IMG/VR virus record: IMGVR_UViG_3300045988_183115
DNA from: a virus
Length of the DNA stretch: 64,000 nucleotides
Reading direction: 5' to 3' (one strand)
A program made the position numbers and the translations under genes. The notes below the pieces were generated by a model. The model was not told the DNA's origin. It did not search any database and saw only the letters and a list, made by a program, of their open reading frames with translations. Below, piece after piece: positions 1,517-62,620 of the stretch (positions are counted from its first letter, which is position 1; each line of letters opens with the position of its first letter).

Positions 1517-1622
1517 CCCCAAAAAGGTAGCAGTAAAGGTGTCATGGACGCACCCAGAATCTGTATGGCGAAGCCATATATATCTGATGCTCGGTAATTC
1601 AATTACCGATGTAGTTCACATG
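1400..1622 (+). ncRNA. putative TnpB-associated right-end RNA (omega/reRNA) overlapping tnpB 3' end and the IS right end
   Basis: By established TnpB biology the guide RNA scaffold derives from the tnpB 3' end plus RE. This stretch is GC-rich and contains the hairpin. Not verified structurally. Confidence 0.3.
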
Positions 1623-3263: not shown

Positions 3264-4550
3264 ATGAAACAGGCAGATATAAATACAATACCAAATCATG
3301 AATATTTGGAACTTAATTATGTTGCAGAAACAGCTACAGGTAAAGGTAATAATCAACAGATTATTATGCAGGTTAATGCCAATAATAAGAATGTTTTTGA
3401 TGTTACTGAAGGTAGAATTGGAATCAGGATAGGAAGGAACAGGCCAAGGACATATTCACTTCCTATGACTAATTGGGATTCTTTTTATTTGTCTAAGGTA
3501 AATAGAGGTTGGTTGCTTACAAAGACTCAAAAAATGGAGAAAAAAAAGATTACAAAAAAAGGTTTAAGTTTTAATGGCGGTACATATGCACAGACTGGAA
3601 TTTTCTCTGTTGATTCTATTATAACAAAACTGCTTTCATACGCTAATAAGGTTATTTCAGATAATTATTCAACTTCAGTTGAAGATATTTCAGATGAGAT
3701 GCTTGAATATGGTAATTCGATTTTGACTGAATTAGCTAAGAACCATGATTCTATGTCAATTGCAGAGTTTAATAATAAATTAAAAGTATTATATGCTGCA
3801 ATTCCTAGAAGAATGGATAATTTATCTAAACATTTGGCTAAAAGAAAGATTGAATTTGTTGATATCATTGACAAAGAGCAGGAACTGTTTGATATTGTGT
3901 ATTCTCAGGTAAGATCTAATAGTAATTTAGCTAAATATAACACTATGCCAACAGTTCTTCAGGCCTATGGACTTGAATGGAGACCTGTATCTGACGAAGA
4001 AGAGACTAAAATCAAGAAGCTTATGGGAGAAAATGCAAAGCAATATAAAAATGCTTGGAGAATCATTAATAAAAAGACCGAAAAGGCTTTCAATGAATAT
4101 TGTGCTAAAGAAAATTTAAGTGATGAAAATAATGGAATATCTCATTTATTTCATGGTTCAAGATCAGAAAACTTCTGGTCCATTATAACTAATGGTTTAA
4201 CAATAAATCCAGTTGGAGTTGTAACTAATGGAAAGATGTTTGGATTAGGTACATATTTTGCTAATAAGGCAAAAAAATCGATGGGATATACTTCAAGCTC
4301 CGGTTCTTATTGGACTCATGGTAGTGAAGCAATTGGATATTTAGGCATTTTCAAAGTGGCTACTGGTAAAACATATGATGTAACATCTGCTGAAAGTGAT
4401 TTAACTTATAATGTTTTACAACAGAGATGTCCTGGCGCTCATTGTACTTTTGCTCATGCAGGCCATAGTTTATGTAATGATGAAATTATTGTATATCAGG
4501 ATCAGCAAAGTACTATAGAATATTTTGTTGAATTTACAGCAGCTCAGTAA
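3264..4550 (+). CDS. PARP-like ADP-ribosyltransferase (WGR-like N-terminal domain + helical region + PARP catalytic domain)
   Basis: C-terminal half carries the PARP H-Y-E signature in the canonical order: HGSRSENFWSIITNGL, then GLGTYFANKAKKS, then EIIVYQ. N-terminus has a WGR-like segment (TEGRIGIRIGRN). RBS is AAGGAGGA. Confidence 0.7.
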   Translation: MKQADINTIPNHEYLELNYVAETATGKGNNQQIIMQVNANNKNVFDVTEGRIGIRIGRNRPRTYSLPMTNWDSFYLSKVNRGWLLTKTQKMEKKKITKKGLSFNGGTYAQTGIFSVDSIITKLLSYANKVISDNYSTSVEDISDEMLEYGNSILTELAKNHDSMSIAEFNNKLKVLYAAIPRRMDNLSKHLAKRKIEFVDIIDKEQELFDIVYSQVRSNSNLAKYNTMPTVLQAYGLEWRPVSDEEETKIKKLMGENAKQYKNAWRIINKKTEKAFNEYCAKENLSDENNGISHLFHGSRSENFWSIITNGLTINPVGVVTNGKMFGLGTYFANKAKKSMGYTSSSGSYWTHGSEAIGYLGIFKVATGKTYDVTSAESDLTYNVLQQRCPGAHCTFAHAGHSLCNDEIIVYQDQQSTIEYFVEFTAAQ

Positions 4551-16128: not shown

Positions 16129-16184
16129 TATCGAAGAATAGCAAGAAAACTACATCCGACAATAGTCAGTTGCGAGTAGTTCAT
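16129..16184 (+). repeat. 56-nt hairpin element, copy A
   Basis: TATCGAAGAATAGCAAGAAAACTACATCCGACAATAGTCAGTTGCGAGTAGTTCAT sits in the 5' UTR of the 16217 gene. Confidence 0.7.
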
Positions 16185-18142: not shown

Positions 18143-18263
18143 TATATTTAAAACTTAATAGTACCAGAAATAGCACTATGAGAGGGAAGAAAAAAACAGA
18201 AATTTGTGTCGAACAATTCAGTGATGGCAATGATATTAATAAAATATTAATCAGGAGGAATAT

Positions 18264-19073
18264 ATGACAAAGAAACCACCAATAGGGATAATACCACGCT
18301 ATATATGGGAATTAAAAAGAATAAAGGAACTTAAATCGGCGATTAGACGATTTATTGCCGCTGGAAAAGAAATTCCGATTGAATGGATAAATGAGTATAA
18401 TGATTTCTGCAAAAGATATGAATGTGCTGATAATTCTTCAAGTTCAGAATTAGAGGAAGATACTCTTTCACTTGAAGAAAAGAGTTCAATATCTATGGAT
18501 TCTGTAGCTAAAGCCATAAATGATTCCTGTTATCTTAAGTATCTCAGTATGGATATATTTAATAATGCTATGTTAAAAAATAAACAAAAGAATGACATGA
18601 TTTTGAGAAATGTAATTTTAGACAGTGAAAATGCGGATAAAAATACATTAATGCTAAAAAATCTAGCGGGTATAGCGCATAATCATGGCATAGATGTGAT
18701 TGTGTTCTGTAACGCTGAGAGACATGATTCATGGAAAAGAGAAGAAACAAAAGAGATTGATGAGATAAAAGACTATGTTTTGGCTTTTGGAAATGCTGCT
18801 AATGAATCTAATCATATAATAAATACCATGTGTATAGTTGATTTTGGAAAAGGTTCTCTTTTGGACTACGATAAGCAGATAAAAGATAGTATTTATTCTC
18901 TAACGAAGACAAGCAGAATAAATAATAACTATAATTTCATCACATGTAATGAACTTATTACCAACTTTGATAAATTTAATTCAGAGTATTATCCTATTTG
19001 CAACATGTTTAATATATATCAGTCAAAAACAGAGGAAGATTGTTATGAGCTGATAGTTATGGGCGATAATTGA
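18264..19073 (+). CDS. hypothetical protein
   Basis: 269-aa ORF with AGGAGGAA RBS. Confidence 0.55.
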   Translation: MTKKPPIGIIPRYIWELKRIKELKSAIRRFIAAGKEIPIEWINEYNDFCKRYECADNSSSSELEEDTLSLEEKSSISMDSVAKAINDSCYLKYLSMDIFNNAMLKNKQKNDMILRNVILDSENADKNTLMLKNLAGIAHNHGIDVIVFCNAERHDSWKREETKEIDEIKDYVLAFGNAANESNHIINTMCIVDFGKGSLLDYDKQIKDSIYSLTKTSRINNNYNFITCNELITNFDKFNSEYYPICNMFNIYQSKTEEDCYELIVMGDN

Positions 19074-19150
19074 TAATGCGTTAATGATAAAAATAGGAAC
19101 AAATGAGAAAAATCTGAGGTTTTTGCCTCGGATTTTGTCTACAGTCTAAT

Positions 19151-28556: not shown

Positions 28557-28589
28557 AATATAATATATTTTTTAATTATGGAGGACTTT

Positions 28590-29012
28590 ATGTTTAAAAT
28601 TATGAGAAAAACAAAACAAAAACAAGTGTCAAGACAAAAAATTAGATATGAATTAAACCAGATAATCAATAATTTCATTTCAGAAATTAATTACGAATAT
28701 ATTTTTAGTTATAATTTTAATATATACAATGGAATTTCTGCATTTACAATTTCGGAAGACAGAATAAGATTTAATGCTAAAGATAAGAAGGTTCATATTA
28801 TTCAAAATGATCACAAAGATAAATTCATAATGAATTATGATAAGTTAAGAAATTTACTAATTAAATATTATGATCTGGATAAATCAGTATTAGAAAATCC
28901 AGTATTAACATATACATTCGTGGATAACAAAAGCAACATTATAAAAATAGTTTTAATAGAAAATTTTGTAGCAGATGCAGATTCTAATTTGATTAGAATT
29001 TTGATTAAATGA
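28590..29012 (+). CDS. hypothetical protein
   Basis: ATG at 28590 (MFKIMRK) follows GGAGGA. The ORF track start at 28578 overlaps the RBS. Confidence 0.55.
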   Translation: MFKIMRKTKQKQVSRQKIRYELNQIINNFISEINYEYIFSYNFNIYNGISAFTISEDRIRFNAKDKKVHIIQNDHKDKFIMNYDKLRNLLIKYYDLDKSVLENPVLTYTFVDNKSNIIKIVLIENFVADADSNLIRILIK

Positions 29013-29140: not shown

Positions 29141-29172
29141 AGCAGGAGATAAGCAAGCATCTCCTGCTTTTG
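29141..29172 (+). terminator. rho-independent terminator
   Basis: AGCAGGAGATAAGCAAGCATCTCCTGCTTTTG. Confidence 0.75.
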
Positions 29173-31134: not shown

Positions 31135-31190
31135 TATCGCAATCAAGCAAGAAAGCTCCATCCGACTAATGTCGTTTGTGAGTAGTTCAT
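31135..31190 (+). repeat. 56-nt hairpin element, copy C (diverged)
   Basis: TATCGCAATCAAGCAAGAAAGCTCCATCCGACTAATGTCGTTTGTGAGTAGTTCAT. The palindrome is changed to CGACTAATGTCG but still pairs. Confidence 0.65.
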
Positions 31191-37931: not shown

Positions 37932-38186
37932 ATGGATAAATATATAGTAGGCATAAGAAAAGGAATAGATAGTGTAATATTTTCTTGTATAATTGAAGCT
38001 TTTATGTTCATTCCTGATATTGCTTTTGATGTTATTAAGCACTTTGATAACATAATCCCAGGAGTTATTTTAATTGTAGTTAATGCTTTATTTATTGCAA
38101 AAATAATATCATCTTATATAATAATAGCTGATAAAAATGATGTCATTAATATTGATAATATTAATGAAAATATGGATGATAAATAG
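37932..38186 (+). CDS. hypothetical small membrane protein
   Basis: ATG at 37932 follows AAGGAGAA. Two hydrophobic helices. Confidence 0.5.
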   Translation: MDKYIVGIRKGIDSVIFSCIIEAFMFIPDIAFDVIKHFDNIIPGVILIVVNALFIAKIISSYIIIADKNDVINIDNINENMDDK

Positions 38187-38434: not shown

Positions 38435-38490
38435 TATCGAAGAATTGTAAGAAAATTCCATCCGACAATAGTCGGTTGTGAGTAGTTCAT
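38435..38490 (+). repeat. 56-nt hairpin element, copy D (consensus-like)
   Basis: TATCGAAGAATTGTAAGAAAATTCCATCCGACAATAGTCGGTTGTGAGTAGTTCAT. The perfect palindrome CCGACAATAGTCGG lies at 38462..38475. The Gmk-like gene starts 16 nt downstream. Confidence 0.75.
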
Positions 38491-40608: not shown

Positions 40609-41658
40609 ATGAGAATAAACAAGATTAAGACTAATGTAACAGTATTAAACAAGGTAGACCGTAAGAATTACCAGGTAATTAATGTTGATGGTTCAGGTGA
40701 TTCCATTAAAGGAACAGCCAAGTTAATCAAGGAGGATGGTTCACTTGATGATTCGGTTACTGCAGTAATTACAGCTAATAATGCAATAGCTTACAAGCTG
40801 ATTGATGATCCTAATATTCCAGATGTTCCAACTGGATATACTGTAAAAAACGGAATTTTGCTTAAGAATGGAGTCCCTGCTACAGAACAGGGTTCACTTG
40901 TAATTAATAGTATTATTGCAGGTGTTGCAGGAAGACTTATTTTATCTGTCGAACCAAGAGAACCAAGAGAAGGTTATTTCGATATTATGTCATATACAGT
41001 TGAGTCAGATAAGTTTAATAAGCTTATCAGAAGATCTATTCCAGAAGTTACAATCATTGCTTCTTCTGAGAATAAGATGCAGTTATATATGACATATTCA
41101 AGAACTTATACTAAGGATAAGAAGCTTGAAGATGGAACTATTGAAACAGATAATATCTTTGATGCTGCAGCAATCATGTTATATGATGTAATGTCTGATG
41201 CAGTTGTTGATCATGTTTCTTTTGCGGAGCCAATTAAGGCTGTAGATTCTGTTAAGGCACCTAATGAAACAATTTTCGCAATTGAAGCAGATACAGTAGT
41301 CGATTCTGACGGAGTTATCAAGGAAGATGATTATATTACATTAAGATTTGTTGCTTCTGAAGGTCATTCATTAAGTCTTTATAAGACAACAGCAATTGAC
41401 AGTGTTCCAGAATCAATTTCAAAGGGATATAATGCAAGCCTGATTAAAGCTTCTTCAGGCAAGTGGTATATTAATGATATCACATATAAGATCCCAGATA
41501 AGATAGTTGCTGAGCTTGCAGGTTATAATGTAATTGTGGATATTACATCTAAGGATCATGTTACAAGAATTTCTCTTGCTAATACAAATACTATGGAGAT
41601 AAAGACTCTTGTTATTTCTGAAACAAGAGATAGAGGAGACATTATAACCATAGAGTAA
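40609..41658 (+). CDS. hypothetical protein, paralogue 1 of a tandem pair
   Basis: 349 aa. N-terminus (NVTVLNKVDRKNYQVINV...IPDVPTGYTVKNGILLKNGVPATEQGSLVINSI) and C-terminus (DHVTRISLANTNTMEIKTLVISETRDRGDIITIE) are clearly homologous to 41791..42942. Confidence 0.65.
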   Translation: MRINKIKTNVTVLNKVDRKNYQVINVDGSGDSIKGTAKLIKEDGSLDDSVTAVITANNAIAYKLIDDPNIPDVPTGYTVKNGILLKNGVPATEQGSLVINSIIAGVAGRLILSVEPREPREGYFDIMSYTVESDKFNKLIRRSIPEVTIIASSENKMQLYMTYSRTYTKDKKLEDGTIETDNIFDAAAIMLYDVMSDAVVDHVSFAEPIKAVDSVKAPNETIFAIEADTVVDSDGVIKEDDYITLRFVASEGHSLSLYKTTAIDSVPESISKGYNASLIKASSGKWYINDITYKIPDKIVAELAGYNVIVDITSKDHVTRISLANTNTMEIKTLVISETRDRGDIITIE

Positions 41659-41790: not shown

Positions 41791-42942
41791 ATGAGAGAAA
41801 ACAAAATTTTAGAAAATGTAACAGTATTAAACAAGGTTGACAACAGACAGTATTTAATTACATCTGTTACCGATGGCGTAGGAACGGCTTGTCTTTTAGA
41901 AAATGGTGAAGTAAACGAGGATATATCTGTTATGATATCATCATCTAACGCAATTGCTTTTAGACTTATCAGCAATCCTAATATTCCAGATATTCCAGAT
42001 GGATATTCAGTAGAAGACGGAATTTTACTTAAGGATGGTGTTGCTGCTACACAGCAGGGTTCACTGGTAATTAAGAGTATCGTTACATCTGTTCCAGGTA
42101 AGCTTTTATTATCTGTATTACCTAGAGAAAACACAACAGAACATGATGATTATATTGATTTATTTGCTTATAAGCCGGATGAGGATAAGTTTAAGAAACT
42201 TATTCCAGTTTCAATTCCAATGCCGGAAGTTATAGGTGTATGTGACAAATATGTGATACTAAAGACTTCCTATACACACTTTGAAACAAAGAAGGATTTT
42301 AATGGAAAAGATATTTTCGCTGAATATTTTGATAATGCTGAAATTATCGTTTATGATGGTGCAAAGAATTATATTTCAAGTTATTTAATGCTTGATGCAC
42401 CAATAAATAATGTCATTACTGTAAGAAATTCAATGAATGTACCTACATGGGTCATTGAATATACAGAGCAGGTATGTGATAATAATTATTATAATCCTGA
42501 TTGTGATTGTGGTTATGACTGCGAAAATGATTGTGGAGATTATGATGAATGCAATAATTGTGATTATCATTTAGATACAATTACTAATACTAAGGAATTA
42601 ATCGAAATGGATCATATTAAAGCAGAAATGATTGCTCTTAATGGTGGTACATTAATGAGGCTCAATAGTATTAATATCCCTTCACATATTAAATCTGTTT
42701 CAATTGGTTGGAATAGTGCTGATTTTATCAGACTTGAAGACAGAATTATGATTGGAGAGTATGTTGATAAAATCATTACTGATTCAAAGATAATGTCTGC
42801 AGTTGAAGGATATGATTGGATTGTCGATACAAGTAAGGAAGATAATGTAACAAGAATTGCTCTTGCAAACGACAATATGGAAATCAAGTATATTGTTATT
42901 ACTGAAACATCAGATAGAGGAGACGTTGTTAAGGTAGAATAA
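41791..42942 (+). CDS. hypothetical protein, paralogue 2 with Cys/Asp-rich insertion
   Basis: 383 aa, homologous to 40609..41658 at both ends. Contains the extra segment CDNNYYNPDCDCGYDCENDCGDYDECNNCDYHLD. Confidence 0.65.
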   Translation: MRENKILENVTVLNKVDNRQYLITSVTDGVGTACLLENGEVNEDISVMISSSNAIAFRLISNPNIPDIPDGYSVEDGILLKDGVAATQQGSLVIKSIVTSVPGKLLLSVLPRENTTEHDDYIDLFAYKPDEDKFKKLIPVSIPMPEVIGVCDKYVILKTSYTHFETKKDFNGKDIFAEYFDNAEIIVYDGAKNYISSYLMLDAPINNVITVRNSMNVPTWVIEYTEQVCDNNYYNPDCDCGYDCENDCGDYDECNNCDYHLDTITNTKELIEMDHIKAEMIALNGGTLMRLNSINIPSHIKSVSIGWNSADFIRLEDRIMIGEYVDKIITDSKIMSAVEGYDWIVDTSKEDNVTRIALANDNMEIKYIVITETSDRGDVVKVE

Positions 42943-43053: not shown

Positions 43054-44847
43054 ATGTCAATGTTTGAACATGTAAAAATTGGAGAATTAACAAAAAAGGT
43101 TATTGAGTCAGGAGTTACAGTGTGTGAACATAACCATCCAGGAGGCTCTTTGTTTGATGCCGTAGATGAACCTAAAAGTTATTTAGATGCTGCATTTAAT
43201 GCAGGATATACTAAATTTGCTGTTACGGACCATGCATCATTTTCAGCAATGCAAACATGTATTGATTACGCTAAGAAAATAAGTACTGAGGAACATCCTT
43301 TTAATATCATTTATGGCGTAGAGGCTTATATTGAAGTGCCACCATTTAAGATAAATGAGCAGATTGGCCATATGATTATGTTAGCCACTTCAGAAAGAGG
43401 CAAACATATTATTGATAAGTTAAATTCTAAGGCTTCTGAAAAAAGAATGGGAAAGCCTGTTATTACAATATCAGATTTAAAGAAATATAACTTTAACGGT
43501 GATATAATAGCAACTTCTGCTTGCGTTTCGGGTGCACCAGCTCTGCAATTATTATCAGATGATGTTTTGGATAAAATGATTAACAGAGAAAGAAAAGCAC
43601 AGCAGCATACTACTGAAAAAGACGAGCTAGTTATACGTGATTGTATAAGTCCTGATGATAAAGAATATCTTTCAGCTAAAGATGAATTTGAAAGGGTATC
43701 GGCAGATTTAGATGAATTGATTAATATTCGTGATTCCAAGGAACTTAAATCAGAAAGAACACAGATTTCAAGAAAATTAAGAGATGCAAGAAAGTGTTTA
43801 AATGATGATGATCCAGAGCTTATTAAACTGATTAACGAATATGAGGAGATAAATAATAAAATTCTGGAAGCTAAAGATAAAATTCCTAATGTCAGAAAAT
43901 TAGTTAATGCTAAGAAAGCCGAGTTAAAGGATATAAGTCTTAAAGTAGAGGAATATATTAATCATGAAAATAAGATACAGCATTATGAATCATTAAAGAA
44001 AAGCCCAATAGAATTAATGTCTGAAGCAGAAAAGACAATGCTTTTTTATCAGGAAATTTTTGGAGCAGGTAATTATTACATTGAAGTTCAGAATCATGGG
44101 CTTGAAATGGAAAGCAGAACATATCCTGTGTTAGCTCAGTTAGCAAGGAAGCATAATATCCCATTAGTTGCTGCTAATGATGCACATATGGCAGATAATT
44201 CTGATAGAAGTATTGATATGCGTAATGTAGCTAAATTTTTAAGATTTATTAAGATAAGTGAGTCGGAATCAGATAAAGAGTTATATGTAAAAACACCTTA
44301 CGAACTTGCTCAGGCCTTATCAGCTATATTAACAGATGATCAGGTTGCAGAAGCACTCAATAACTTAAATGTAATTGGAAAAAGATGTGCTTATATTCCA
44401 GAAAAATCTAATCATTATCCAGTATTTGATAAGAACAAGGACTCAAACGAATTATTAAGATCTGAAGCAATTAAGGGAATTAATTGGAGATATCCTAACG
44501 GGAAAGGATGGGATGAAGAACATCAGAAACGAATGGAATACGAACTTAATATTATCATTCAGATGGGCTTTGCCGATTATCATTTAATTGTAAAGGACTT
44601 CCTGGAATATGGAAGAATTTGTGGATTAGTACCTATGGATAAACTATCAGAAGTACCTTTAACAATTGAAGGTGCAAAAGAGTATGTTAAGGCTCACAAT
44701 TATAATACCGGAATTGGAATAGGCATTGGAAGAGGTTCAGGTGCCGGTTCATTGGTTACATATTTACTTGGTATTACCGGAATTGATCCATTTAAGTATA
44801 ATCTGATTTTTGAACGATTCTTAAATCCAGAAAGAGTAAGTATGCCT
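43054..44847 (+). CDS. dnaE: DNA polymerase III alpha (DnaE-type), exon 1: PHP domain + coiled-coil insert + palm N-part, up to the SMP of the SMPDxDxD motif
   Basis: PHP-like N-terminus. [15 protein letters not shown] and [15 protein letters not shown] match Dna[41 protein letters not shown] matches the DnaE palm. The ORF reads through into the intron to 44895. Confidence 0.8.
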
Positions 44848-45787
44848 AAATATATTGGGCGTTCAGCGTGGACTCTAACTCAGAGGTGTGCTTAATATTT
44901 TATTATTAAGTGCTAACGGTAGAAGTTGAATAAGACTGCTATATAAAGTGTCACAACAGGATATATAGCTTAACCCATAGACGAAGCAGCTTCGTAAGAG
45001 AACCTACGGTCCTAATATTTTTATATAAAAGATATTGAAGGATAGCAGGCGATACCGTGCTAAGATTATAAATAATATTATATAAATAAGGAGGTGTATA
45101 TTTATGATAGATTATATCAATTTTACATCATTCCTTGAAAAAGGTGAAAAAATAGTAGAAATTAAAAATCACCACGAATATTACATAACTTCATATGGAA
45201 AGATTTTTAGTATAAAACAAGGGAAAATTCGACAACTTAAACCTTTTTTAGATAGTAAAAAGAATTACAGGATGATAAGATTAGATAATAAAAAATATTT
45301 ATTGCATCGATTAGTTGCGATGAATTTTATTCCTAATCCTTATAATCTACCAGAAGTTAATCATAAAGACAAAAATAAACAAAATTGTAAGGTGAATAAT
45401 TTAGAATGGTGTACTAGAAAAGACAATTTATATGATAGTTATAAAACTATGTCTCCTGTAAGAAATTATAAGTGTTGTAAATTATATAAAGGAGATATAT
45501 TAATTGATAGATTTGAAAGCATATTAGCAGCAGCTCGATATGCTAAAGAAAAATATAACGCAAGTTATTCCTCAATGCATAAATATTTAAAATGGAATGA
45601 CTTAAAAATTGTTCGTATATAATATTATTTATTTTAAAGTGTAACGACTATCCTTTTTAAGGAGTACAACTGAGAATGGTTACAGTTGGAAGTGCGTTGA
45701 AATATAATATTAACAATATTATATTGAGATATAGTCTAATCCCACTTATACAAGTGTTAAAGTACTACGAAAGTAGGGGTATATTTG
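44848..45787 (+). mobile_element. group I-like self-splicing intron interrupting dnaE, carrying an HNH homing endonuclease ORF
   Basis: Protein homology places the junction at SMP|DIDSD. The 5' exon ends in U (44847) and the intron ends in G (45787), as group I splicing requires. The flanks of the endonuclease ORF are GC-richer and look structured. Confidence 0.6.
45104..45622 (+). CDS. HNH homing endonuclease (intron-encoded)
   Basis: YRMIRLDNKKYLLHRLVAMNFIPNP...EVNHKDKNKQNCKVNNLEWCTRKDN is a classic HNH_3-type phage homing endonuclease signature. RBS is AAGGAGG. Confidence 0.8.
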   Translation: MIDYINFTSFLEKGEKIVEIKNHHEYYITSYGKIFSIKQGKIRQLKPFLDSKKNYRMIRLDNKKYLLHRLVAMNFIPNPYNLPEVNHKDKNKQNCKVNNLEWCTRKDNLYDSYKTMSPVRNYKCCKLYKGDILIDRFESILAAARYAKEKYNASYSSMHKYLKWNDLKIVRI

Positions 45788-46543
45788 GATATCGATAGTG
45801 ATCTTGCTCTTGGAGTAAGAGAAAAGACAATTGAGTATGTAAGAGCTAAATATGGTAGTGAAGCTGTTGTTGGAATTATTACAGAATCAAGACAGCAGGC
45901 TAAAGGTGCTATCAGAGATGCTGCAAGATATTATGGAAAGAAAGCTTATGATGATGAAAAGAAATTCTTATCTTTAGGAGATCAGATTCGTAAGAAAGTG
46001 CCTGCTAAAGCAACTAATTTTGAAGATATTGTTGGCATGAAAGATACTAATAAGGTTGATGAATTAGGCATTAATATTCAGGACAGCATTTCTTTGTTAG
46101 ATTTCTTAAAGGATGAATATAATAGTAATCCAGATGCTATTTCTATTCTTAATATTGCAGCTCATTGTGAAGGTATGCTTACGACATACGCACAACATGC
46201 CGCAGGTGTTATTATTTATGATAGTAATGATGTTACTGATTATATTCCTATTAGAGATGGAAAAAAGGGAATTAAAACTACAGAAATGGACATGATTCAG
46301 TGCGAAGCTAATGGATTATTAAAAATGGATTTTCTTGGATTAAAAACTCTTACAATTATTACTGACACACTCAGAATGATTCAGAGAGATACAGGAGAAG
46401 TAATTGATGTAATGAATATTCCATTAGAGGGTCCTAAAGCTGATAAGGTATACAAAGAAGTATATGCAAAAGGAAGAACTAAGAATGTTTTCCAGTTTGA
46501 GTCAGCCGGTATGAGAAATAACCTTAAGAAGTTATGCTCATAG
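45788..46543 (+). CDS. dnaE: DNA polymerase III alpha (DnaE-type), exon 2 (palm/thumb segment), ends with its own stop codon
   Basis: DIDSDLALGVREKTIEYVRAKYGSEAVVGIITESRQQAKGAIRDAARYYG and VFQFESAGMRNNLKKL are colinear with the E. coli DnaE region after SMPDFDVDF through GVFQLESRGM. Confidence 0.8.
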   Translation, partial: DIDSDLALGVREKTIEYVRAKYGSEAVVGIITESRQQAKGAIRDAARYYGKKAYDDEKKFLSLGDQIRKKVPAKATNFEDIVGMKDTNKVDELGINIQDSISLLDFLKDEYNSNPDAISILNIAAHCEGMLTTYAQHAAGVIIYDSNDVTDYIPIRDGKKGIKTTEMDMIQCEANGLLKMDFLGLKTLTIITDTLRMIQRDTGEVIDVMNIPLEGPKADKVYKEVYAKGRTKNVFQFESAGMRNNLKKLCS

Positions 46544-47555: not shown

Positions 47556-47611
47556 TATCGCAATTAAGCAAAAAACCCCAACCGACAATAGCCGGTTGTG
47601 GGTAGTTTAAT
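47556..47611 (+). repeat. 56-nt hairpin element, copy E (diverged)
   Basis: TATCGCAATTAAGCAAAAAACCCCAACCGACAATAGCCGGTTGTGGGTAGTTTAAT. The palindrome is CCGGCTATTGTCGG-type with compensatory changes. Confidence 0.65.
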
Positions 47612-49197: not shown

Positions 49198-49253
49198 TAT
49201 CGAAGAATTGTAAGAAAACTCCATCCGACAATAGTCGGTTGTGAGTAGTTCAT
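49198..49253 (+). repeat. 56-nt hairpin element, copy F (consensus-like)
   Basis: TATCGAAGAATTGTAAGAAAACTCCATCCGACAATAGTCGGTTGTGAGTAGTTCAT is near-identical to copy D. Confidence 0.75.
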
Positions 49254-52092: not shown

Positions 52093-53778
52093 ATGAATAA
52101 AACAGGTATTGAAGATTTAATAGCAATGAATGCTTTATATCGTCCTGGCCCTGAAAAGTTTATACCTGATTTCATAGAAGGTAAAAAGGATGCATCTAAG
52201 ATTAAATATTTATGTCCTCAATTAGAGCCAATTCTGTCAACTACTTATGGACAGATAGTTTATCAGGAACAGGTAATGCAGATTGTTCGTGATTTAGCAG
52301 GATATACATGGGGGCGTTCTGATTTAGTCCGTAGAGCTATGTCAAAAAAACATCAGGATGAAATTGATGCTGAAAGACACACTTTTGTATATGGTAATGC
52401 TGATACTAAAAAAGAAAATGAAGCATTAGTACCAGGATGTATTGCAAATGGAATACCAGAAGAAATTGCTCATAAAATCTGGGATGCGATGGTTGACTTT
52501 GCTAAGTATGCGTTTAATAAGTCACATGCCACTGCTTATGCTGTTACATCATATTGGACAGCTTTTCTTAAGTATTATTATCCGGCTTATTATCTTACAA
52601 ATGTAATAAATCATACTGATAAGATTGATGAAGTCGCTGATGATATTAGTGATGCCCTTGATTTTGGAGTAAAGGTATTGCCTCCGGACATTAATGCTTC
52701 AAATTTACATTGTGATGTTGTAGATGGGAACATTTTGTATGGTCTGAGTAATATTAAGAATGTTGGATCAGAAGCAGCTAAAATTATTGAAGATAGAAAT
52801 GTTAATGGAGAATATTCTGATATTAAGGATTTTATCAAACGAACAAATATTAATGCAGAAGCATTAAGTTCCTTAATTAAAGCAGGTGCTTTCGATTGCC
52901 TTGGTTATACAAGAACAATGATATCATTAGATATGATTTGTATGAAAGAAATTCAGGATACAATTAAGAAAATCAGAGAGAAGAGTAAGTTTATTGAAAA
53001 CGCAAGTAAAGTTATTGAATTTGTGGAAGATTATATTGATCTTGATGAGTTTAAGGAAAGAATTTCAGAAGAAAATATTTCCTTTCAAGTTACTTCAAAA
53101 AAGATGCCAACTAAGGATTCCATAATTAAACGTATCAATTCAGCTAAGACAGTTATAGAAAGCTTAGAAGATGATCTTGAAAATATAGATATTGATTATG
53201 TAGAAGATGATTTAGGTCAGATTCTAAATGATGAAAAAGAAGTGTTAGGTGTTTATATTACAGGGCATCCAATTGATGAGTATAATATTTATACAGATCC
53301 CATTTCTGATATTTCAACAGAAGTTAACGATGTATCTGGTATAATTAAAAATCTTGTTGTAAGAAAGGATAGAAATGGATACGAATGGGTAACTTTTGAG
53401 GTAGAAGATAAAACAGGTTCTATTAATGGTGTATGTTTTTCTAAAGATTATGCAAATATTAGAGACTTACTTGTTAATGATGCTAAATTATGTTTATCAG
53501 GAAAAATTCAAGTAGATGATTTTAGATCTTCAGATGACGAAACTGTATATCAGATTATTGTTAAGTCTGTTAAACCTTTAAAGAAAAATAAGTCTTCATA
53601 CAGATTTATATGTACTGTTTCCGAAGTAAACGATGTTCTTGATTCTATTAATGAATATCTGGTAGATAATGACGGGGATTATTTATATTGGCTTGATTCA
53701 ACAACCGGAATTGAACATTTATGCAAGAAATTCATTAACCCTGATATGTCAGCACCTTCAATAGTACGCAAATGCTAA
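52093..53778 (+). CDS. dnaE: DNA polymerase III alpha (DnaE-type), C-terminal piece (fingers, beta-clamp-binding, OB-fold region), separately expressed
   Basis: EDLIAMNALYRPGPEKFIPDFIEGKKD continues E. coli DnaE (FEDMIALVALFRPGPLQ) directly after the end of exon 2. Further matches include YQEQVMQIVRDLAGYTWGRSDLVRRAMSKK. The C-terminal OB-like part includes VVRKDRNGYEWVTFEVED. Confidence 0.8.
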   Translation: MNKTGIEDLIAMNALYRPGPEKFIPDFIEGKKDASKIKYLCPQLEPILSTTYGQIVYQEQVMQIVRDLAGYTWGRSDLVRRAMSKKHQDEIDAERHTFVYGNADTKKENEALVPGCIANGIPEEIAHKIWDAMVDFAKYAFNKSHATAYAVTSYWTAFLKYYYPAYYLTNVINHTDKIDEVADDISDALDFGVKVLPPDINASNLHCDVVDGNILYGLSNIKNVGSEAAKIIEDRNVNGEYSDIKDFIKRTNINAEALSSLIKAGAFDCLGYTRTMISLDMICMKEIQDTIKKIREKSKFIENASKVIEFVEDYIDLDEFKERISEENISFQVTSKKMPTKDSIIKRINSAKTVIESLEDDLENIDIDYVEDDLGQILNDEKEVLGVYITGHPIDEYNIYTDPISDISTEVNDVSGIIKNLVVRKDRNGYEWVTFEVEDKTGSINGVCFSKDYANIRDLLVNDAKLCLSGKIQVDDFRSSDDETVYQIIVKSVKPLKKNKSSYRFICTVSEVNDVLDSINEYLVDNDGDYLYWLDSTTGIEHLCKKFINPDMSAPSIVRKC

Positions 53779-55213: not shown

Positions 55214-56242
55214 ATGGCAGATAAGAATTTATTATTAAATAAAAAAAACAATAAAGATGAATATATTGATGAATTATTTGATACAAATAAACCAATAGAA
55301 AACATAAATATTTTATCAGAGGATAATTATACCGATATTTTAAATGATAAAGAGATTTTAAATGAAAAAGAGAAACTATTATTAGAAAATAATATAACTT
55401 ATTATATTAAATCATTCGCTGATTATCCGGTTTTATCCAAAGATGAAACTCTTAAATTATTTGAAGAGATAAAAAAACATCCTAAAAAGAAAAAAGAAAT
55501 AACCGAAAAATTGATTTTATCTAATATGCGTTTAGTCATCAGTATTGCTAAAGCTGTTACAGCTAAAACGCAAAGTTTTGAAATGGATGATTTATGTCAG
55601 GCCGGTATTTTCGGGTTATACAGAGCTATACAAATGTTTGATTATAAATTAGGATATGCATTTTCAACTTATGCAACTCATTGGATTAGACAGAGTATAT
55701 ATAGAGAATTAGCCAATTATGATTTATTAGTTAGATTCCCTGTACATGTAAGAGAACAGGATTCTTTTGTTAAGACTACATTTGTGGATTTAACTAATAA
55801 ACTTCAAAGAAAACCTACAATTGATGAATTATATGATGTAGTAAAACAAAGATATCCTCTTTTAACTAAAGAAATGCTTGTGCATATTCAGAGTTTTAAT
55901 GAATTGGTTTCATTAGATGCACCTATTCAAAGTGATGAAGGCCATGACGATTCATGTTTGGCTGATTATATAGAAGCTCCTGAACCTAAAGTTGAAGATA
56001 CGATTATTCAAAAAGAAATGAAAGAACTGCTTTGGAAAGAAGTTGAAGATTGTCTCACTCCTAGAGAATTATATGTAATTAAGGGTAGAATGGGATATGG
56101 CTCAAAAGTTAAAACTTTACAAGATATAGGTACTGAATGGAATGTATCCAGAGAACGAATCAGACAGATTGAATCAAAAGCAATAAAAAAGATTAGAGTT
56201 CGTTTCAGACGGAAAGGATATAGTATACAATCTTTTATGTAA
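55214..56242 (+). CDS. sigma-70 family RNA polymerase sigma factor
   Basis: Region 2 is NMRLVISIAKAV...DLCQAGIFGLYRAIQMFDYKLGYAFSTYATHWIRQSIYREL. Region 4 HTH is LQDIGTEWNVSRERIRQIESKAIKKIR. Confidence 0.85.
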   Translation: MADKNLLLNKKNNKDEYIDELFDTNKPIENINILSEDNYTDILNDKEILNEKEKLLLENNITYYIKSFADYPVLSKDETLKLFEEIKKHPKKKKEITEKLILSNMRLVISIAKAVTAKTQSFEMDDLCQAGIFGLYRAIQMFDYKLGYAFSTYATHWIRQSIYRELANYDLLVRFPVHVREQDSFVKTTFVDLTNKLQRKPTIDELYDVVKQRYPLLTKEMLVHIQSFNELVSLDAPIQSDEGHDDSCLADYIEAPEPKVEDTIIQKEMKELLWKEVEDCLTPRELYVIKGRMGYGSKVKTLQDIGTEWNVSRERIRQIESKAIKKIRVRFRRKGYSIQSFM

Positions 56243-57523: not shown

Positions 57524-58465
57524 ATGCAAAAAATGAATTACGAAAATTTTCTTAAACATCTTAAATTCGAATTACTTCAAAATATTGAAGATATTACACC
57601 AACAGATATAGTTTGCACATCAGATAAGCTTATTTTTCATTCTAAAAATCAGTTTATGTGTCCCTTAGAATTTAAATTAAATCAATTATATAAACAATAT
57701 TTAAATAATTCGTCAATAGAAGAAATTGCATTGTCAATATCTGAAGCATTTTATAGAAACAAAAATTCTAATGGTAGTGAATATAAACTTAATAATTTAG
57801 CTCCAGAAATTAATTTAAATGATATAAAACACTATATTATACCTCAATTAATACAAAAGCCGGACAATATGGAAGATTTAAGCGGTATTCCTCATAGGCC
57901 ATTTTATGAGTTCGAAATAATTTATAATGTGATCATACCTAAAGAAAATTCAGAAGGTACAATGTTTGTAATTGATAATAACTATATGAGAGACATACTG
58001 AAAATTGATGAAAACGAATTGTACAATCTTGCAATTCATTCAATATATTCCAACAAATATTTTATCAGTGTATTAGGTGATTATTTTTTGACGCAACTGG
58101 CAGATGATGATAATTATGAAAAAACAAAGAAAGAATTATTTTCTCTAAGTAATTCTGATGGGTTTGAGAGCAAATGTATTAAAGGAATATATGCAATTCA
58201 AAATATAATTGACTTTTATAACACAAGTGCAATTCTGAATAATAATTTGCTTAAGAATATTTCAGAGAAACTGAAAACAAATTTATACATTGTTCCTGTT
58301 ACAGCACATATTCTGTTGATATGTAAATACAATGAATTTACTCCTGAAGAAATTCAAATGGCATTAAAGATATTTGGTATTCAGGAAGAAGAAGATTATC
58401 TGAGTTCAGATATATTTATATTTAACAAAGAATCAGGTGAATTAAGTGAACTACCCACCACCTAA
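57524..58465 (+). CDS. hypothetical protein; stop codon overlaps the left-end hairpin of the IscB element
   Basis: 313-aa ORF with AAAGGAGAATTAA RBS. C-terminal codons ...ELPTT-stop lie within CCCACCACCTAAAGGTAGTGGG. Confidence 0.6.
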   Translation: MQKMNYENFLKHLKFELLQNIEDITPTDIVCTSDKLIFHSKNQFMCPLEFKLNQLYKQYLNNSSIEEIALSISEAFYRNKNSNGSEYKLNNLAPEINLNDIKHYIIPQLIQKPDNMEDLSGIPHRPFYEFEIIYNVIIPKENSEGTMFVIDNNYMRDILKIDENELYNLAIHSIYSNKYFISVLGDYFLTQLADDDNYEKTKKELFSLSNSDGFESKCIKGIYAIQNIIDFYNTSAILNNNLLKNISEKLKTNLYIVPVTAHILLICKYNEFTPEEIQMALKIFGIQEEEDYLSSDIFIFNKESGELSELPTT

Positions 58466-58737
58466 AGGTAGTGGGCTTCTGTTAAATGGTTCACCAGACT
58501 AAGTATTCAGAAATGGATACTACGATATTTAGGTTATGATACCTTCGGTTGACGCAACAGACCGTTGCTCTATCGTACATATTTAAGTTAGGTCAGAGTA
58601 AGAACAGCCTTGTGATATGTACATAAAAGCCTTTATATCATTGTCGAGTTGAAGTCGGAACAATCGTATGGTAAACAGTACGACAAAGTACGCATCACCT
58701 ACTATTAAGTAGAGTATTTATAAGGAGGAACTTATTT
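58466..58737 (+). ncRNA. putative IscB omega RNA scaffold (IS left-end region upstream of iscB)
   Basis: A 270-nt GC-enriched, ORF-free stretch lies immediately 5' of iscB and begins with an imperfect hairpin. This is the position where IscB omega RNAs are known to be encoded. No tRNA features. Confidence 0.5.
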
Positions 58738-59997
58738 ATGGTTTATGTGATTTCACAAGATGGTAAACCACTAATGCCCTGTAGTAACTCTATAGCAAGA
58801 TTGTTACTTAAACAAAGCAAAGCAAAAGTTAAGAAACGTGAGCCATTTACAATTAAATTGACTTATGAAACAACAAATTACACTCAAGACTTAACTCTTG
58901 GTGTAGATACCGGAAGCGGAACTATTGGCACTTCTGTAAGCAAAGACAATGGAGATATTATCTATATGTCGGAAGTTGTTATAAGAAACGACATTACCGG
59001 CAAAATGACACAAAGAGCAAAGTATCGTAGAAACAGACGAAATCGTAAAGCTCGTTATAGAAAAGCAAGATGGTTAAATCGTGCTAATTCTATTAAGAAT
59101 GATAGATTTAGCCCTACGATGCAGAGTAAGCTTCATAGTCATGTTAAAGAGATAAAATATATTAAATTTATTCTTCCGATTACAGAAATGGTATTTGAGA
59201 CAGGTCAGTTTGATACTCACCTTATGAAAAATCCAAATCTTGCTAATCCTAAAATTAAACATTGGGGTTATCAGAAAGGTATTAATTATGGGTTTGAGAA
59301 TACCAAAGCGATGGTTCTTAATCGAGATAATTATACTTGTCAATATTGTAAAGGCAAACATAAGGATAGTAAGTTAGAAGTTCATCATATTTTATTTCGT
59401 AGTCAGGGGGGTTCTGATGAAGAAAGTAATCTAATTACTCTGTGTCATACCTGTCATAAAGATTTACATAGTGGAAAAATTAACCCCAAATTGAGTGGTA
59501 AAGTTAAAGGTAATCTTAAATATGCCACACAGATGAACTCTATTCGTAAACAGCTTTTTAAATTATATCCAGATGCAGTTGAGACCTTCGGATATGTGAC
59601 AAAAGCTAACCGTTTGCTTCTTGGCATTGACAAAGAACATTATTATGATGCCTGTACGATTGCAACACAAGGCAATATATTTACTGTAAAATCCAACCTT
59701 TACAAAAAGAAATGCATTTCAGATGGTGATTTTCAAAAAACAAAAGGGATTCGTTCAGAACAGCCTATTATCACTGATAAGATTTGTGGCTTTAGAAAAT
59801 TTGACAAAGTTCGATACTTTGGAAACAAATATTTTATCAAGGGTAGAATGTCCACTGGATATGCAGTTCTCATGGATATAGATGGTAACAAGGTTGATTT
59901 TTCGGCAATGCCAAAAGGATACAAGACACCTAAATTGAGTAATTGTAAACGCATAATGGCAAGGTCAACTGAAATGATACAGACCTTGGTAATTTAA
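58738..59997 (+). CDS. iscB: IscB RNA-guided endonuclease (PLMP domain, split RuvC with inserted HNH)
   Basis: PLMP motif is QDGKPLMPC. RuvC-I is LTLGVDTGSGTIGTSV. Arg-rich bridge helix is RAKYRRNRRNRKARYRKARW. RuvC-II glutamate is in ITEMVFETGQFD. HNH is CQYCKGK...HHILFRSQGG...NLITLCHTCH. RuvC-III is EHYYDACTIA. Length 419 aa. Confidence 0.8.
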   Translation: MVYVISQDGKPLMPCSNSIARLLLKQSKAKVKKREPFTIKLTYETTNYTQDLTLGVDTGSGTIGTSVSKDNGDIIYMSEVVIRNDITGKMTQRAKYRRNRRNRKARYRKARWLNRANSIKNDRFSPTMQSKLHSHVKEIKYIKFILPITEMVFETGQFDTHLMKNPNLANPKIKHWGYQKGINYGFENTKAMVLNRDNYTCQYCKGKHKDSKLEVHHILFRSQGGSDEESNLITLCHTCHKDLHSGKINPKLSGKVKGNLKYATQMNSIRKQLFKLYPDAVETFGYVTKANRLLLGIDKEHYYDACTIATQGNIFTVKSNLYKKKCISDGDFQKTKGIRSEQPIITDKICGFRKFDKVRYFGNKYFIKGRMSTGYAVLMDIDGNKVDFSAMPKGYKTPKLSNCKRIMARSTEMIQTLVI

Positions 59998-60100
59998 CGC
60001 CATTCATTCCACGGTCTAAAGACCATGGGTTTTCTGGCTAAAACATTATAAAATAGAATAAACAATACAATATATATTAAAACAGAAAGGAAAGAGAAAG

Positions 60101-61311: not shown

Positions 61312-61986
61312 ATGAAATTTGAGAAAAAGAAATCATTTTGGAAAGTTTTTTTAGATGAGTGTGCAGGAGTAATATTAGCTGGGGCAATTATGATATACAT
61401 TGCCTTATCTGCCATTATAGGAAATTTGATATTGCCATACATAAATAATGGGAAAGAAATAAATCCGTATATAGAAGATGTAAGCAGTAAGTTTACAATA
61501 TTTTTGATAAAAACAGCCATAGGTGCTATATGGCTATTTGGCGTAATTTTCATGCTGTTAATTGCTTTTGCTATTATAAGCTTAATTGTAATAGCAATAA
61601 TAACCGGAATAACACATATAATAGCCGTAAAACGATACACATATTTACCTCTTACAGCAGATGAAGTAAGAGAAGCTATAAATGCAGGATTATTTAAAGA
61701 TACTCCTGAAAGCTATATAGATTATCTTACAAAACAGATGAAGTATTTTGATGGCAGTATAACCTTTTCAATAAATGATATGAAAATGATAATAAAAACA
61801 GTAAAGGAAATATGGGATAAGCCATTTAAGCTTAATAAAGATTATCTTATCAGGAATGAAATAGAAAGTTATGATTATTTCCCATTTAGATTTAGGGATG
61901 ACAGAGATGATTTATTTCAGTTAAAGAAAGGCAAAACAGTAACTTTTGATATGGATGAAGGTTCTTTGATTCAGGATATCAAATAA
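61312..61986 (+). CDS. hypothetical membrane protein
   Basis: 224-aa ORF with AAAGGAGATAAATT RBS and three TM helices. Its 3' end is duplicated as a fragment at 62425..62524. Confidence 0.55.
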   Translation: MKFEKKKSFWKVFLDECAGVILAGAIMIYIALSAIIGNLILPYINNGKEINPYIEDVSSKFTIFLIKTAIGAIWLFGVIFMLLIAFAIISLIVIAIITGITHIIAVKRYTYLPLTADEVREAINAGLFKDTPESYIDYLTKQMKYFDGSITFSINDMKMIIKTVKEIWDKPFKLNKDYLIRNEIESYDYFPFRFRDDRDDLFQLKKGKTVTFDMDEGSLIQDIK

Positions 61987-62001
61987 AAAGGAGCATATAA
62001 G

Positions 62002-62424: not shown

Positions 62425-62524
62425 ATTTGGGATTGACAGATATGATTTATTTTGCCAGTTAGAGAGAAACAAAACAGTTGCTTTTGATATTGATGGTTGT
62501 TCTTTAATTCAAAATGTCAAATAA
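62425..62524 (+). pseudogene. truncated duplicate of the 3' end of gene 61312..61986
   Basis: About 100 nt align with 61883..61984 at ~80% identity. The final 16 codons (TVAFDIDGCSLIQNVK-stop) are preserved against TVTFDMDEGSLIQDIK-stop. No start codon or upstream ORF. Confidence 0.6.
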
Positions 62525-62620
62525 AGAAAAAGGAAAAATTTTGATACATTTGATGATACTGATATAAAAAATCAAAAAGACAAAATTAATAAAGAATCAT
62601 TAATAGTAGGAGAATAAGGT

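Follow-up and report, generated by a model that had tools for sequence, protein, structure and literature searches.

A dispersed 56-nt single-hairpin repeat in a human-gut mobile replicon and its possible kinship with IS200/IS605-type elements

What is the 56-nt hairpin sequence at positions 38435–38490 of IMG/VR record IMGVR_UViG_3300045988_183115, and what has placed near-copies of it elsewhere in the same DNA? The record was analysed as one stretch of 64 kb (the window), together with related loci and contigs to which we refer by L-numbers (L001, L013, L050 and so on). An initial annotation had offered two readings of the repeat: (a) a palindrome-associated or miniature inverted-repeat transposable element (PATE or MITE) derived from an insertion sequence (IS) of the IS200/IS605 family, or (b) a cis-regulatory RNA hairpin or a target of TnpB/IscB guides. 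We hypothesize, with confidence that stands about midway, that the 56-mer is a one-hairpin mini-element, similar to PATEs and to repetitive extragenic palindromes (REPs), that derives from or mimics the right end of a resident IS200/IS605 element and is probably handled as single-stranded DNA (ssDNA) by a Y1 transposase. Reading (a) is favoured in this form by a boundary motif, a polymorphic site, restriction to one lineage, subfamilies and hypervariability of the copies; the part of it that fares poorly concerns the architecture, in that there is one hairpin and no target motif conserved beyond T.

The window has a G+C content of 28.5%, and its open reading frames (ORFs) lie almost all on the + strand. 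In it, the relaxed pattern TATCG-N22/23-CGAC-N4-GNCNNTTGNGNNTAGTT has six matches, all on the + strand (16129, 29060, 31135, 38435, 47556 and 49198), with 0 expected from shuffles; these are the six sharp-ended full copies that had already been listed, and every one is recovered. The hairpin-core pattern has eight matches against 0.03 expected. Repeat-finding and an nhmmer profile together give exactly seven full-length copies, again all on the + strand (the minus-strand nhmmer matches are merely the palindromic core of the same copies). The seventh is 2414–2469: a supposed degenerate copy at 2428 is actually this full-length 56-nt copy, a member of a second subfamily (TATTGCAATTAAAT...) with the terminus TTTAG. 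The consensus of the family is TATCGAAGAATAGCAAGAAAACTCCATCCGACAATAGTCGGTTGTGAGTAGTTCAT. The reported 56-mer is found exactly at 38435, and at 49198 with its Y resolved to C; the two copies differ from each other by 1 nt. Subfamilies A and B are separated by about five linked differences within the 5′ 15 nt, identical 56-mers occupy unrelated sites in L001 and L014, and the two perfect copies of the window are closer to each other than to their own orthologues in other strains.

Folded as ssDNA, the element forms one long imperfect hairpin (positions 17–54, -9 kcal/mol, z = -4) and its 5′ 16 nt remain unpaired. Its layout can be described as a 15-nt leader, the hairpin at 17–54 with the core CCGAC-N4-GTCGG, and the terminus TAGTTCAT. 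The initial annotation had taken a perfect CCGAC/GTCGG hairpin to be a property of the family; it is perfect in just two of the seven copies (38435 and 49198), and among the other five the core has a mismatch in four and a compensated T-A pair in the copy at 2414.

The family is narrowly distributed. A strict pattern has a single true match among 185,579 species-representative genomes, on a 29-kb contig binned into a Clostridia metagenome-assembled genome (a match in L002, from Acidobacteriota, was set aside as chance in GC-rich DNA), five matches in two IMG/VR contigs, and none in INPHARED or PLSDB; in metagenomes it marks 30 loci, all from human gut. Most loci are orthologues of window sites at 96–99% identity, and about ten further sites elsewhere in the same or closely related replicons bring the number of distinct sites to 17. 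Homologues of the genes next to two window copies, a guanylate-kinase-like (Gmk-like) gene and a flotillin gene, have no element upstream when they are 44–74% identical, and neither has a flotillin homologue of 98% identity whose upstream region differs. This restricted distribution, taken with the element-free diverged orthologues, indicates that the family is young, confined to one lineage and no conserved attribute of those genes.

A first clue to its origin comes from the two resident IS200/IS605 elements. The first is an IS605-type element (1–1619, + strand) that is truncated by the window start and comprises the C-terminal part of tnpA (1–246), which carries the HUH and Tyr motifs of a Y1 transposase, and tnpB (260–1516); a full 138-aa Y1_Tnp gene is present in L050–L057, in L050 at 3571–3987. 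Its right-end hairpin lies at 1591–1609 (+), and its 3′ terminus falls exactly at 1619 (...TCGGTAATTCAATTACCGA TG TAGTTCAC|, the right end being ...TGTAGTTCAC|). In L011 the corresponding site is empty (...TATTTTTAG|ATGTTTTG); this empty site and the full copies in L050–L057 define the termini as TTTAG|GATAAAAAGCGGGAATCC-TCGGTAATTCAATTGCCG ... GATGC-TCGGTAATTCAATTACCGA-TGTAGTTCAC|. An independent IS605 insertion in MT835844.1 (L066) has identical junctions and also follows TTTAG; this copy, in an unrelated, GC-richer ‘Bacteriophage sp.’ record, is 98% identical and has an internal deletion. Since IS605 is itself polymorphic (absent from L011, empty site ...TTTAG|ATGTTTTG), it appears to have been active recently and to be shared among replicons.

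The second resident is an IscB element (58446–60037, - strand, its top strand being the minus strand), which we oriented by the rule of Meers et al. (bioRxiv 10.1101/2023.03.14.532601) and which comprises a HEARO/omega RNA (58446–58659, -) and iscB (58738–59997, -). On the minus strand its right end is CCCACTACCTTTAGGTGGTGGG TAGTTCAC|, with the last base at 58446; we infer a left end at 60037, adjoining TTTAG (60038–60042, reverse complement). No empty site was recovered for it, all recovered places being the same site. The element is oriented opposite to IS605 and apparently has the same target (TTTAG) and terminal (TTCAC) motifs, as expected if one TnpA moves both. On the reverse strand of L016, about 68 nt 3′ of the 56-nt copy there, we also noted what looks like a decayed IscB-element right end: a remnant of the HEARO 5′ end (GTGAAATACCCACCACCTAAA, compared with GTGAACTACCCACCACCTAAAGG in the window) that is not followed by an IscB gene.

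When the three kinds of 3′ end are placed side by side, the 56-mer (...GTCGG-TTGTGAG-TAGTTCAT|), IS605 (...ACCGA TG TAGTTCAC|) and the IscB element (...GGTGGG TAGTTCAC|) all have the heptamer TAGTTCA at their exact 3′ boundary. The resemblance of hairpin and terminal motif to the IS605 right end, which had been pointed out before, is therefore real and closer than first claimed, and the 56-mer has a right end of the PATE type: a hairpin, a short spacer and a boundary motif common to an autonomous element in the same genome. The longer sequence GTAGTTCA occurs six times in the window, where about two occurrences would be expected by chance; four are in 56-mers and the two others are at IS right ends, one at that of IS605 and one, in reverse complement, exactly where the HEARO/IscB RNA begins.

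A second line of evidence is turnover. Site 49198 has three alleles with flanks 96–100% identical. In the first (L015 and L035, flanks 99% identical) there is no element and a small acidic ORF is intact (MKTLNIINDFIKTSES...NNNN, then stop); in the second (L013) the element lies within this small ORF, after codon 6, where it replaces 10–15 nt; in the third (the window, L021 and L058) the element is joined straight to ...GCAAATACAG via a 169-nt deletion, whose far end in native DNA (...TTATTCAT| / ...GTTATTCAT|) is TTCAT, as at the element’s own end. At site 29060, L022, L042 and L043 have 13 extra nt (TATATTTCTATAT) exactly at the 5′ junction. Hence presence and absence at otherwise identical sites is seen, at one site only (49198), and each of the three junction rearrangements has one of its ends exactly at a boundary of the element. 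No flank duplication was seen at element sites; the 5′ flank has T at -1 in 18/18 flank sequences from the 17 sites, and A at -2 in 11/18. Copies also diverge faster than their surroundings: between haplotypes, with outliers removed by hand, divergence is about 5% in the element and about 1% in the 250-nt flanks, and with all comparisons pooled it is 6.7% against 3.0% (Fisher p ~1e-6, computed over haplotypes that are not independent). Subfamilies, identical copies and hypervariability are features of a selfish repeat that is copying, converting or decaying; judged from the sequences, the pattern is unlike that of a site under sequence-specific purifying selection.

Precise removal of the 56 nt from L013 would keep the small ORF in frame, and for this reason a tiny intron or a translational bypass was considered; we rejected it because the remaining copies do not lie in coding sequence, their flanks have nothing in common and the ORF in the window decays after the insertion.

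How might such a unit move? In the model that we favour, the 56-nt unit would be a gene-less, non-autonomous mini-element of the IS200/IS605 kind whose top strand is cut out and pasted, now or recently, in single-stranded form by a Y1 (HUH) transposase. The sole candidate enzyme that we see is the TnpA of the resident IS605; a Y1 (HUH) TnpA, as would be expected alongside a PATE, is encoded in the replicon. TnpA would recognise the hairpin and, on the 5′ side of its foot, a short DNA ‘guide’, and would cut after the terminal motif, putatively TTCAC in both resident IS elements and TTCAT in the mini-element. Guide and terminal motif are placed here in the register of the IS608 rule. By this rule AGAAA (positions 16–20), directly 5′ of the extended stem, is a candidate guide for TTCAT; in the IscB element GAAG, and in IS605 GATG, would play the corresponding part for TCAC, and the last guide position would co-vary (A with T, G with C). 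Transposition of this kind would yield sharp identical ends without target duplication, subfamilies, the same copies at different sites, a polymorphic site and rearrangements that end on element boundaries; it would also yield a single orientation, with the top strand taken to be both the lagging-strand template and the sense strand of co-directional genes. The location in untranslated regions (UTRs) could then be a consequence of where insertions are tolerated, and effects on mRNA stability or translation, if any, would be a by-product of a stable hairpin added to UTRs, since every copy lies within a predicted sense transcript.

Several observations weigh against this model. GAA(17–19) and TTC(52–54) can simply pair as the hairpin foot in the DNA fold, which weakens the guide reading. 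There is a single hairpin (17–54), whereas two are bound by the TnpA dimer and both ends carry one in IS200/IS605 elements and in PATEs. Apart from T there is no conserved 5′ target motif, whereas TTTAG precedes the insertions of the resident IS elements. The filled allele at 49198 also lacks 10–15 nt of the empty allele, hence the insertion is not a clean one, and this is the only polymorphic site of the seven in the window, the other six being occupied in every relative sampled. The common terminal 7–8-mer was spotted post hoc. The single orientation is equally of little help: the element is co-oriented with the local genes at 17/17 sites, and this bias is uninformative on replication versus transcription because the local genes are on one strand and the GC skew is uniformly positive across the window. 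Finally, a tandem or circle-junction sequence was sought in assembled IMG/VR contigs and none was found, and a longer parent IS with the CCGAC hairpin was not found in IMG/VR scans made separately with the 5′ half and the 3′ half, which returned only full-length copies and apparent chance matches. The chance-like matches comprise L061, between family-A DNA polymerase and glycosyltransferase genes, and L063–L065, on contigs of 41–43% GC; a hairpin with TAGTTCAT at L034:6065 lies inside coding sequence and was likewise discarded as a chance match.

The lone hairpin can be accommodated by a bolder version of the model, which we put forward tentatively and regard as possible, if on balance doubtful: the 56-mer as a complete one-hairpin transposon, in which one hairpin and its guide direct TnpA cuts at both boundaries. 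The 5′ cut would be T|TATCG, 15 nt upstream of the guide (left-end-like), the 3′ cut would be TTCAT| (right-end-like), and the left and right ends would in effect be collapsed onto one structure. If this were true, few known mobile DNAs would be as small as the 56-mer, which would be active in a replicon of phage- or plasmid-like type.

The same turnover data can be read without a transposase. The 56-mer may be a dispersed repeat that owes its spread to gene conversion, template switching or illegitimate recombination at short AT-rich microhomologies (TAT.../TTCAT), with a TAGTTCA match to the IS ends that is coincidental or dates from an old IS-end capture. Comparable are the conserved small intergenic cassettes by which genes are shuffled in T4-type phages. 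The copies vary far more than their flanks, and they change both toward and away from the family consensus, as expected for conversion between copies. Each of the three junction rearrangements can also be written as a deletion between short direct repeats: the 13- and 15-nt differences fall at TAT/TAT and the 169-nt deletion at TTCAT/TTCAT. Genes for RecA, RecJ, UvrD and a 5′-3′ exonuclease are present in the replicon, and the element has neither a target motif nor a second hairpin. What recombination alone leaves unexplained are the sharp identical ends at 17 unrelated sites and the single orientation; moreover, the terminal heptamer coincides with the exact boundaries of two different IS200/IS605 elements, and both non-family occurrences of GTAGTTCA are on IS ends. 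Nor does the element contain a promoter-like motif, the local CTGTCATAT motif being separate from it. On this balance we consider spread by recombination rather unlikely.

Where the copies sit with respect to genes raises a further question, that of function. Two copies lie in a 5′ UTR just 3′ of a promoter motif: 16129–16184 (+, subfamily A), 26 nt 3′ of the promoter-like motif CTGTCATAT and 32 nt 5′ of the ATG (16217) of a UvrD-like helicase gene, and 31135–31190 (+, subfamily B), 33 nt before the ATG (31224) of a flotillin/SPFH gene. Two lie between cistrons: the reported copy at 38435–38490 (+, perfect hairpin) starts 1 nt past a small ORF’s stop codon and is separated by 15 nt from the ATG of the Gmk-like gene, and 47556–47611 (+, subfamily B, decayed, ending GTAGTTTAAT) lies 21 nt before the ATG of an RlaP-type nucleotidyltransferase gene. 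Others are found between a gene and a terminator, namely those in L014 and L016, 29060–29115 (+, subfamily A; 3′ of ORF 28578–29012 and followed by an intrinsic terminator at 29141–29168) and 2414–2469 (+, subfamily B, decayed, TATTGCAATTAAAT...GAGTAATTTAG; between convergent genes, with a long hairpin on its 3′ side). At the last of these sites L026 and L050 have more consensus-like versions, with 120-nt flanks 97.5–100% identical. The copy at L035:198 lies between a terminator and a promoter, that of L013 inside an ORF, and 49198–49253 (+, perfect hairpin), the copy at the polymorphic site, within the wreck of the disrupted small ORF (ATG 49181). The initial annotation had counted five copies 15–40 nt upstream of a start codon and one followed by a terminator. 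Four copies are so placed, at 15–33 nt, the copy at 49198 being 82 nt from ORF 49336, and two (29060 and 2414) precede a terminator-like hairpin, that of 2414 being long, AT-rich, visible in the sequence and uncalled by the terminator scan.

The promoter-like motif itself, a T-run followed by CTGTCATAT(A/T), is unlike the TTGACA/TATAAT consensus and has 36 + strand sites, among them 7650, 15281, 16104, 29220, 32983, 36966, 43012 and 52049. In 22/36 cases it lies 41–49 nt before an ORF start, and this implies a fixed short 5′ UTR; a subset (16074, 19171, 31056 and 39106) has TTTTTATGTAAAAA beginning about 30 nt upstream. The sigma-70-like ORF at 55214–56242 is a candidate reader of the motif. 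A promoter inside the 56-mer, of hairpin or sigma-70 type, was rejected: there are no convincing hexamers, and the promoter-like motif of the replicon is separate.

One could suppose from these positions that the 56-mer is a functional cis-acting RNA (or DNA) selected in the sense orientation, such as an mRNA-stabilising or processing hairpin, a translational operator or an antitermination site. All 17 sites are co-oriented with genes and the window copies all lie within predicted transcription units; four of these and several others end 15–35 nt before a start codon, just 5′ of the ribosome-binding site; the hairpin is stable, 20 columns are invariant (unpaired ones included), and most sites are occupied in all close relatives. 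The placement is nevertheless inconsistent with one role (5′ UTR, 3′ UTR, pre-promoter in L035, ORF-disrupting in L013 and the window), the same genes lack the element in the 44–74%-identity relatives, and the downstream genes have no common function. Rfam was searched with the whole window (gathering thresholds) and with the locus (E < 10); HEARO elsewhere and two noise matches were all that came up, and thus no match for the element.

The variation of the stem points the same way. In a set of 29 distinct sequences, drawn from the window and from related contigs, 94% of stem cells are paired, double-sided changes affect 2/14 stem pairs, and single changes comprise 18 G.T and 15 C.A cells, that is, they are as often disruptive as wobble, in copies that evolve faster than their flanks. 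The compensatory changes noted earlier are present, then, and slight; that the hairpin is under selection, as had been concluded from them, is weakly supported because double changes are few, covariation being marginal, and the G.T/C.A split is even. This split (18 against 15) also shows no preference by which wobble pairs could reveal the functional strand, and that approach was abandoned. We judge a cis-acting function to be quite unlikely.

Even less probable, to the point that we give it hardly any credence, is a role alongside the resident RNA-guided nucleases, in which the 56-mer would either be targeted by the TnpB/IscB guides or serve as a minimal right-end scaffold through which the sequence downstream becomes extra guide RNAs. 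The terminal motif is common to the guide-abutting part of omega RNAs and all copies are predicted to be sense-transcribed; against this, the element at 56 nt is far below the ~210-nt HEARO scaffold and has no other similarity to it, the resident guides share <=6 nt with the element, and TTTAG is missing from the flanks of the would-be targets. The guide sequences have no match to the element, so that we dropped the idea of a target of the resident guides. Reading (b) of the initial annotation is in neither of its forms borne out, given the lack of an Rfam match, the variable placement, the absence from diverged orthologues and the unmatched guides.

How does the proposed mini-element compare with known systems? 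Meers et al. described PATEs related to ISGst1 and ISGst5 in Geobacillus stearothermophilus, with TTCAC and TTCAT as terminal/adjacent motifs (TEM/TAM) of ISGst elements, guide-motif covariation, flexible spacing and TnpA use of alternative TEM-like boundaries. Like PATEs, the 56-mer is gene-less, has sharp ends and no target duplication, and shares a right-end-type terminus (hairpin, short spacer, TTCAY) with autonomous elements in a genome that encodes a Y1 TnpA; unlike them, it has one hairpin rather than two within a total of 56 nt, and its adjacent motif is just T as opposed to the TTTAG of the resident IS. Relative to known PATE/REP-like elements, it is this one-hairpin architecture that is unusual.

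Top-strand specificity, a guide 5′ of the hairpin foot and lagging-strand preference were reviewed by Ton-Hoang et al. 2012, according to whom REPs are thought to be handled by a Y1/HUH enzyme that cuts either side of one hairpin. By definition a REP has GTAG 5′ of the foot of a 20–40-nt imperfect palindrome (Di Nocera et al. 2013; Ton-Hoang et al. 2012), and occasional REP copies occur inside genes (Di Nocera et al. 2013). The 56-mer is likewise a short single imperfect palindrome, dispersed mostly extragenically and within predicted transcripts. It differs in that its GTAG (positions 48–51) is 3′ of the stem, contrary to that definition; in that REPs occur mostly as inverted pairs, as in bacterial interspersed mosaic elements (BIMEs) and REP doublets forming hairpins (REPINs), whereas 56-mers are singletons in one orientation at 17 sites; in that no single-copy, repeat-flanked REP-associated tyrosine transposase (RAYT) was seen, the only Y1 gene being that of an ordinary IS605 next to tnpB; and in that it resides on a ~100-kb phage- or plasmid-like replicon rather than on a chromosome.

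Free-standing IS605 stem-loops have been reported in Borrelia plasmids (Delihas 2009, PMC2775950). These too are IS605-end-type hairpins dispersed without a transposase gene, beside genes and on extrachromosomal replicons; the 56-mer differs from them in its fixed 15-nt leader and fixed ends and in a hairpin sequence unlike that of the resident IS, with which only the terminal heptamer and the layout are common. In the promoter and stem-loop (PeSL) cassettes of T4-type phages the repeat carries a promoter beside the stem-loop and flanks variable ORFs. In contrast, the 56-mer is without a convincing sigma-70-type site, the CTGTCATAT motif lies separately, upstream or downstream of it, and gene indels in relatives are not element-bounded. 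An integron attC-like site or cassette boundary was rejected for the last of these reasons, the gene-cassette indels (18180–19146, 45090–45603 and 1365 nt at 37996/7) not being bounded by the element.

If the link to TnpA holds, the minimal DNA needed by a Y1 transposase would be 56 nt that contain a single hairpin, a single guide and two cut sites, with a bearing on how REP-like single hairpins spread, on the co-existence of TnpB/IscB elements with gene-less relatives on mobile replicons, and on the design of very small mobilisable DNA tags. If it fails, the 56-mer is an ordinary lineage-specific dispersed repeat. For phage and plasmid annotation, the point is that conserved hairpins 5′ of genes can be selfish insertions and not regulatory signals.

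We treat the host DNA as an AT-rich phage- or plasmid-like mobile replicon of ~100 kb. Apart from IS605 (tnpA-tnpB) and the IscB element with its HEARO RNA, the window encodes UvrD, RecJ, RecA, helicases, a DnaE in three pieces, a 5′-3′ exonuclease, a sigma-70-like factor, a class A penicillin-binding protein, GGDEF, HD and PARP proteins, a DNA methylase and an HNH homing endonuclease; a Mob_Pre relaxase and tyrosine recombinases are encoded in neighbouring DNA. Many human-gut assemblies, as well as ‘viral’ contigs of IMG/VR, contain near-identical DNA; metagenomes with the replicon include ERZ28664398, ERZ27244884 and ERZ28661053. A replicon of ~103.5 kb is suggested by two independent assemblies of 103,490 and 103,496 bp, and assemblies of ~103.49 kb include IMGVR_UViG_3300045988_182851 and ERZ27244884:k141_210439; other contigs with identical genes measure 200–812 kb. 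All pattern matches in a 322-kb contig (OCHC01000010.1) lie within its initial ~81 kb; in some samples, larger DNA may have the element-bearing region integrated in it or scaffolded to it.

Some further features of the window deserve mention. DnaE (DNA polymerase III alpha) is split over three ORFs (43054–44895, 45785–46543 and 52093–53778) with consecutive Pfam coverage. The first gap holds an HNH/NUMOD4 homing-endonuclease ORF (45104–45622) that is absent from L021, and the second 5.5 kb of unrelated genes (the RlaP nucleotidyltransferase, the 5′-3′ exonuclease and others) with two 56-nt copies inside. A 967-nt segment (18180–19146), which contains an ORF of 269 aa (18264–19073) without a Pfam match, is missing in L009, L024, L025 and L032, with an overlap of ~24 nt at the junction; L021 has 1365 extra nt at 37996/37997. 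Two tandem paralogous genes (40609–41658 and 41791–42942) encode proteins of ~350–380 aa with stretches 77–80% identical and no Pfam match, and diverged direct repeats occur at ORF ends at 61918–61987 and 62456–62525.

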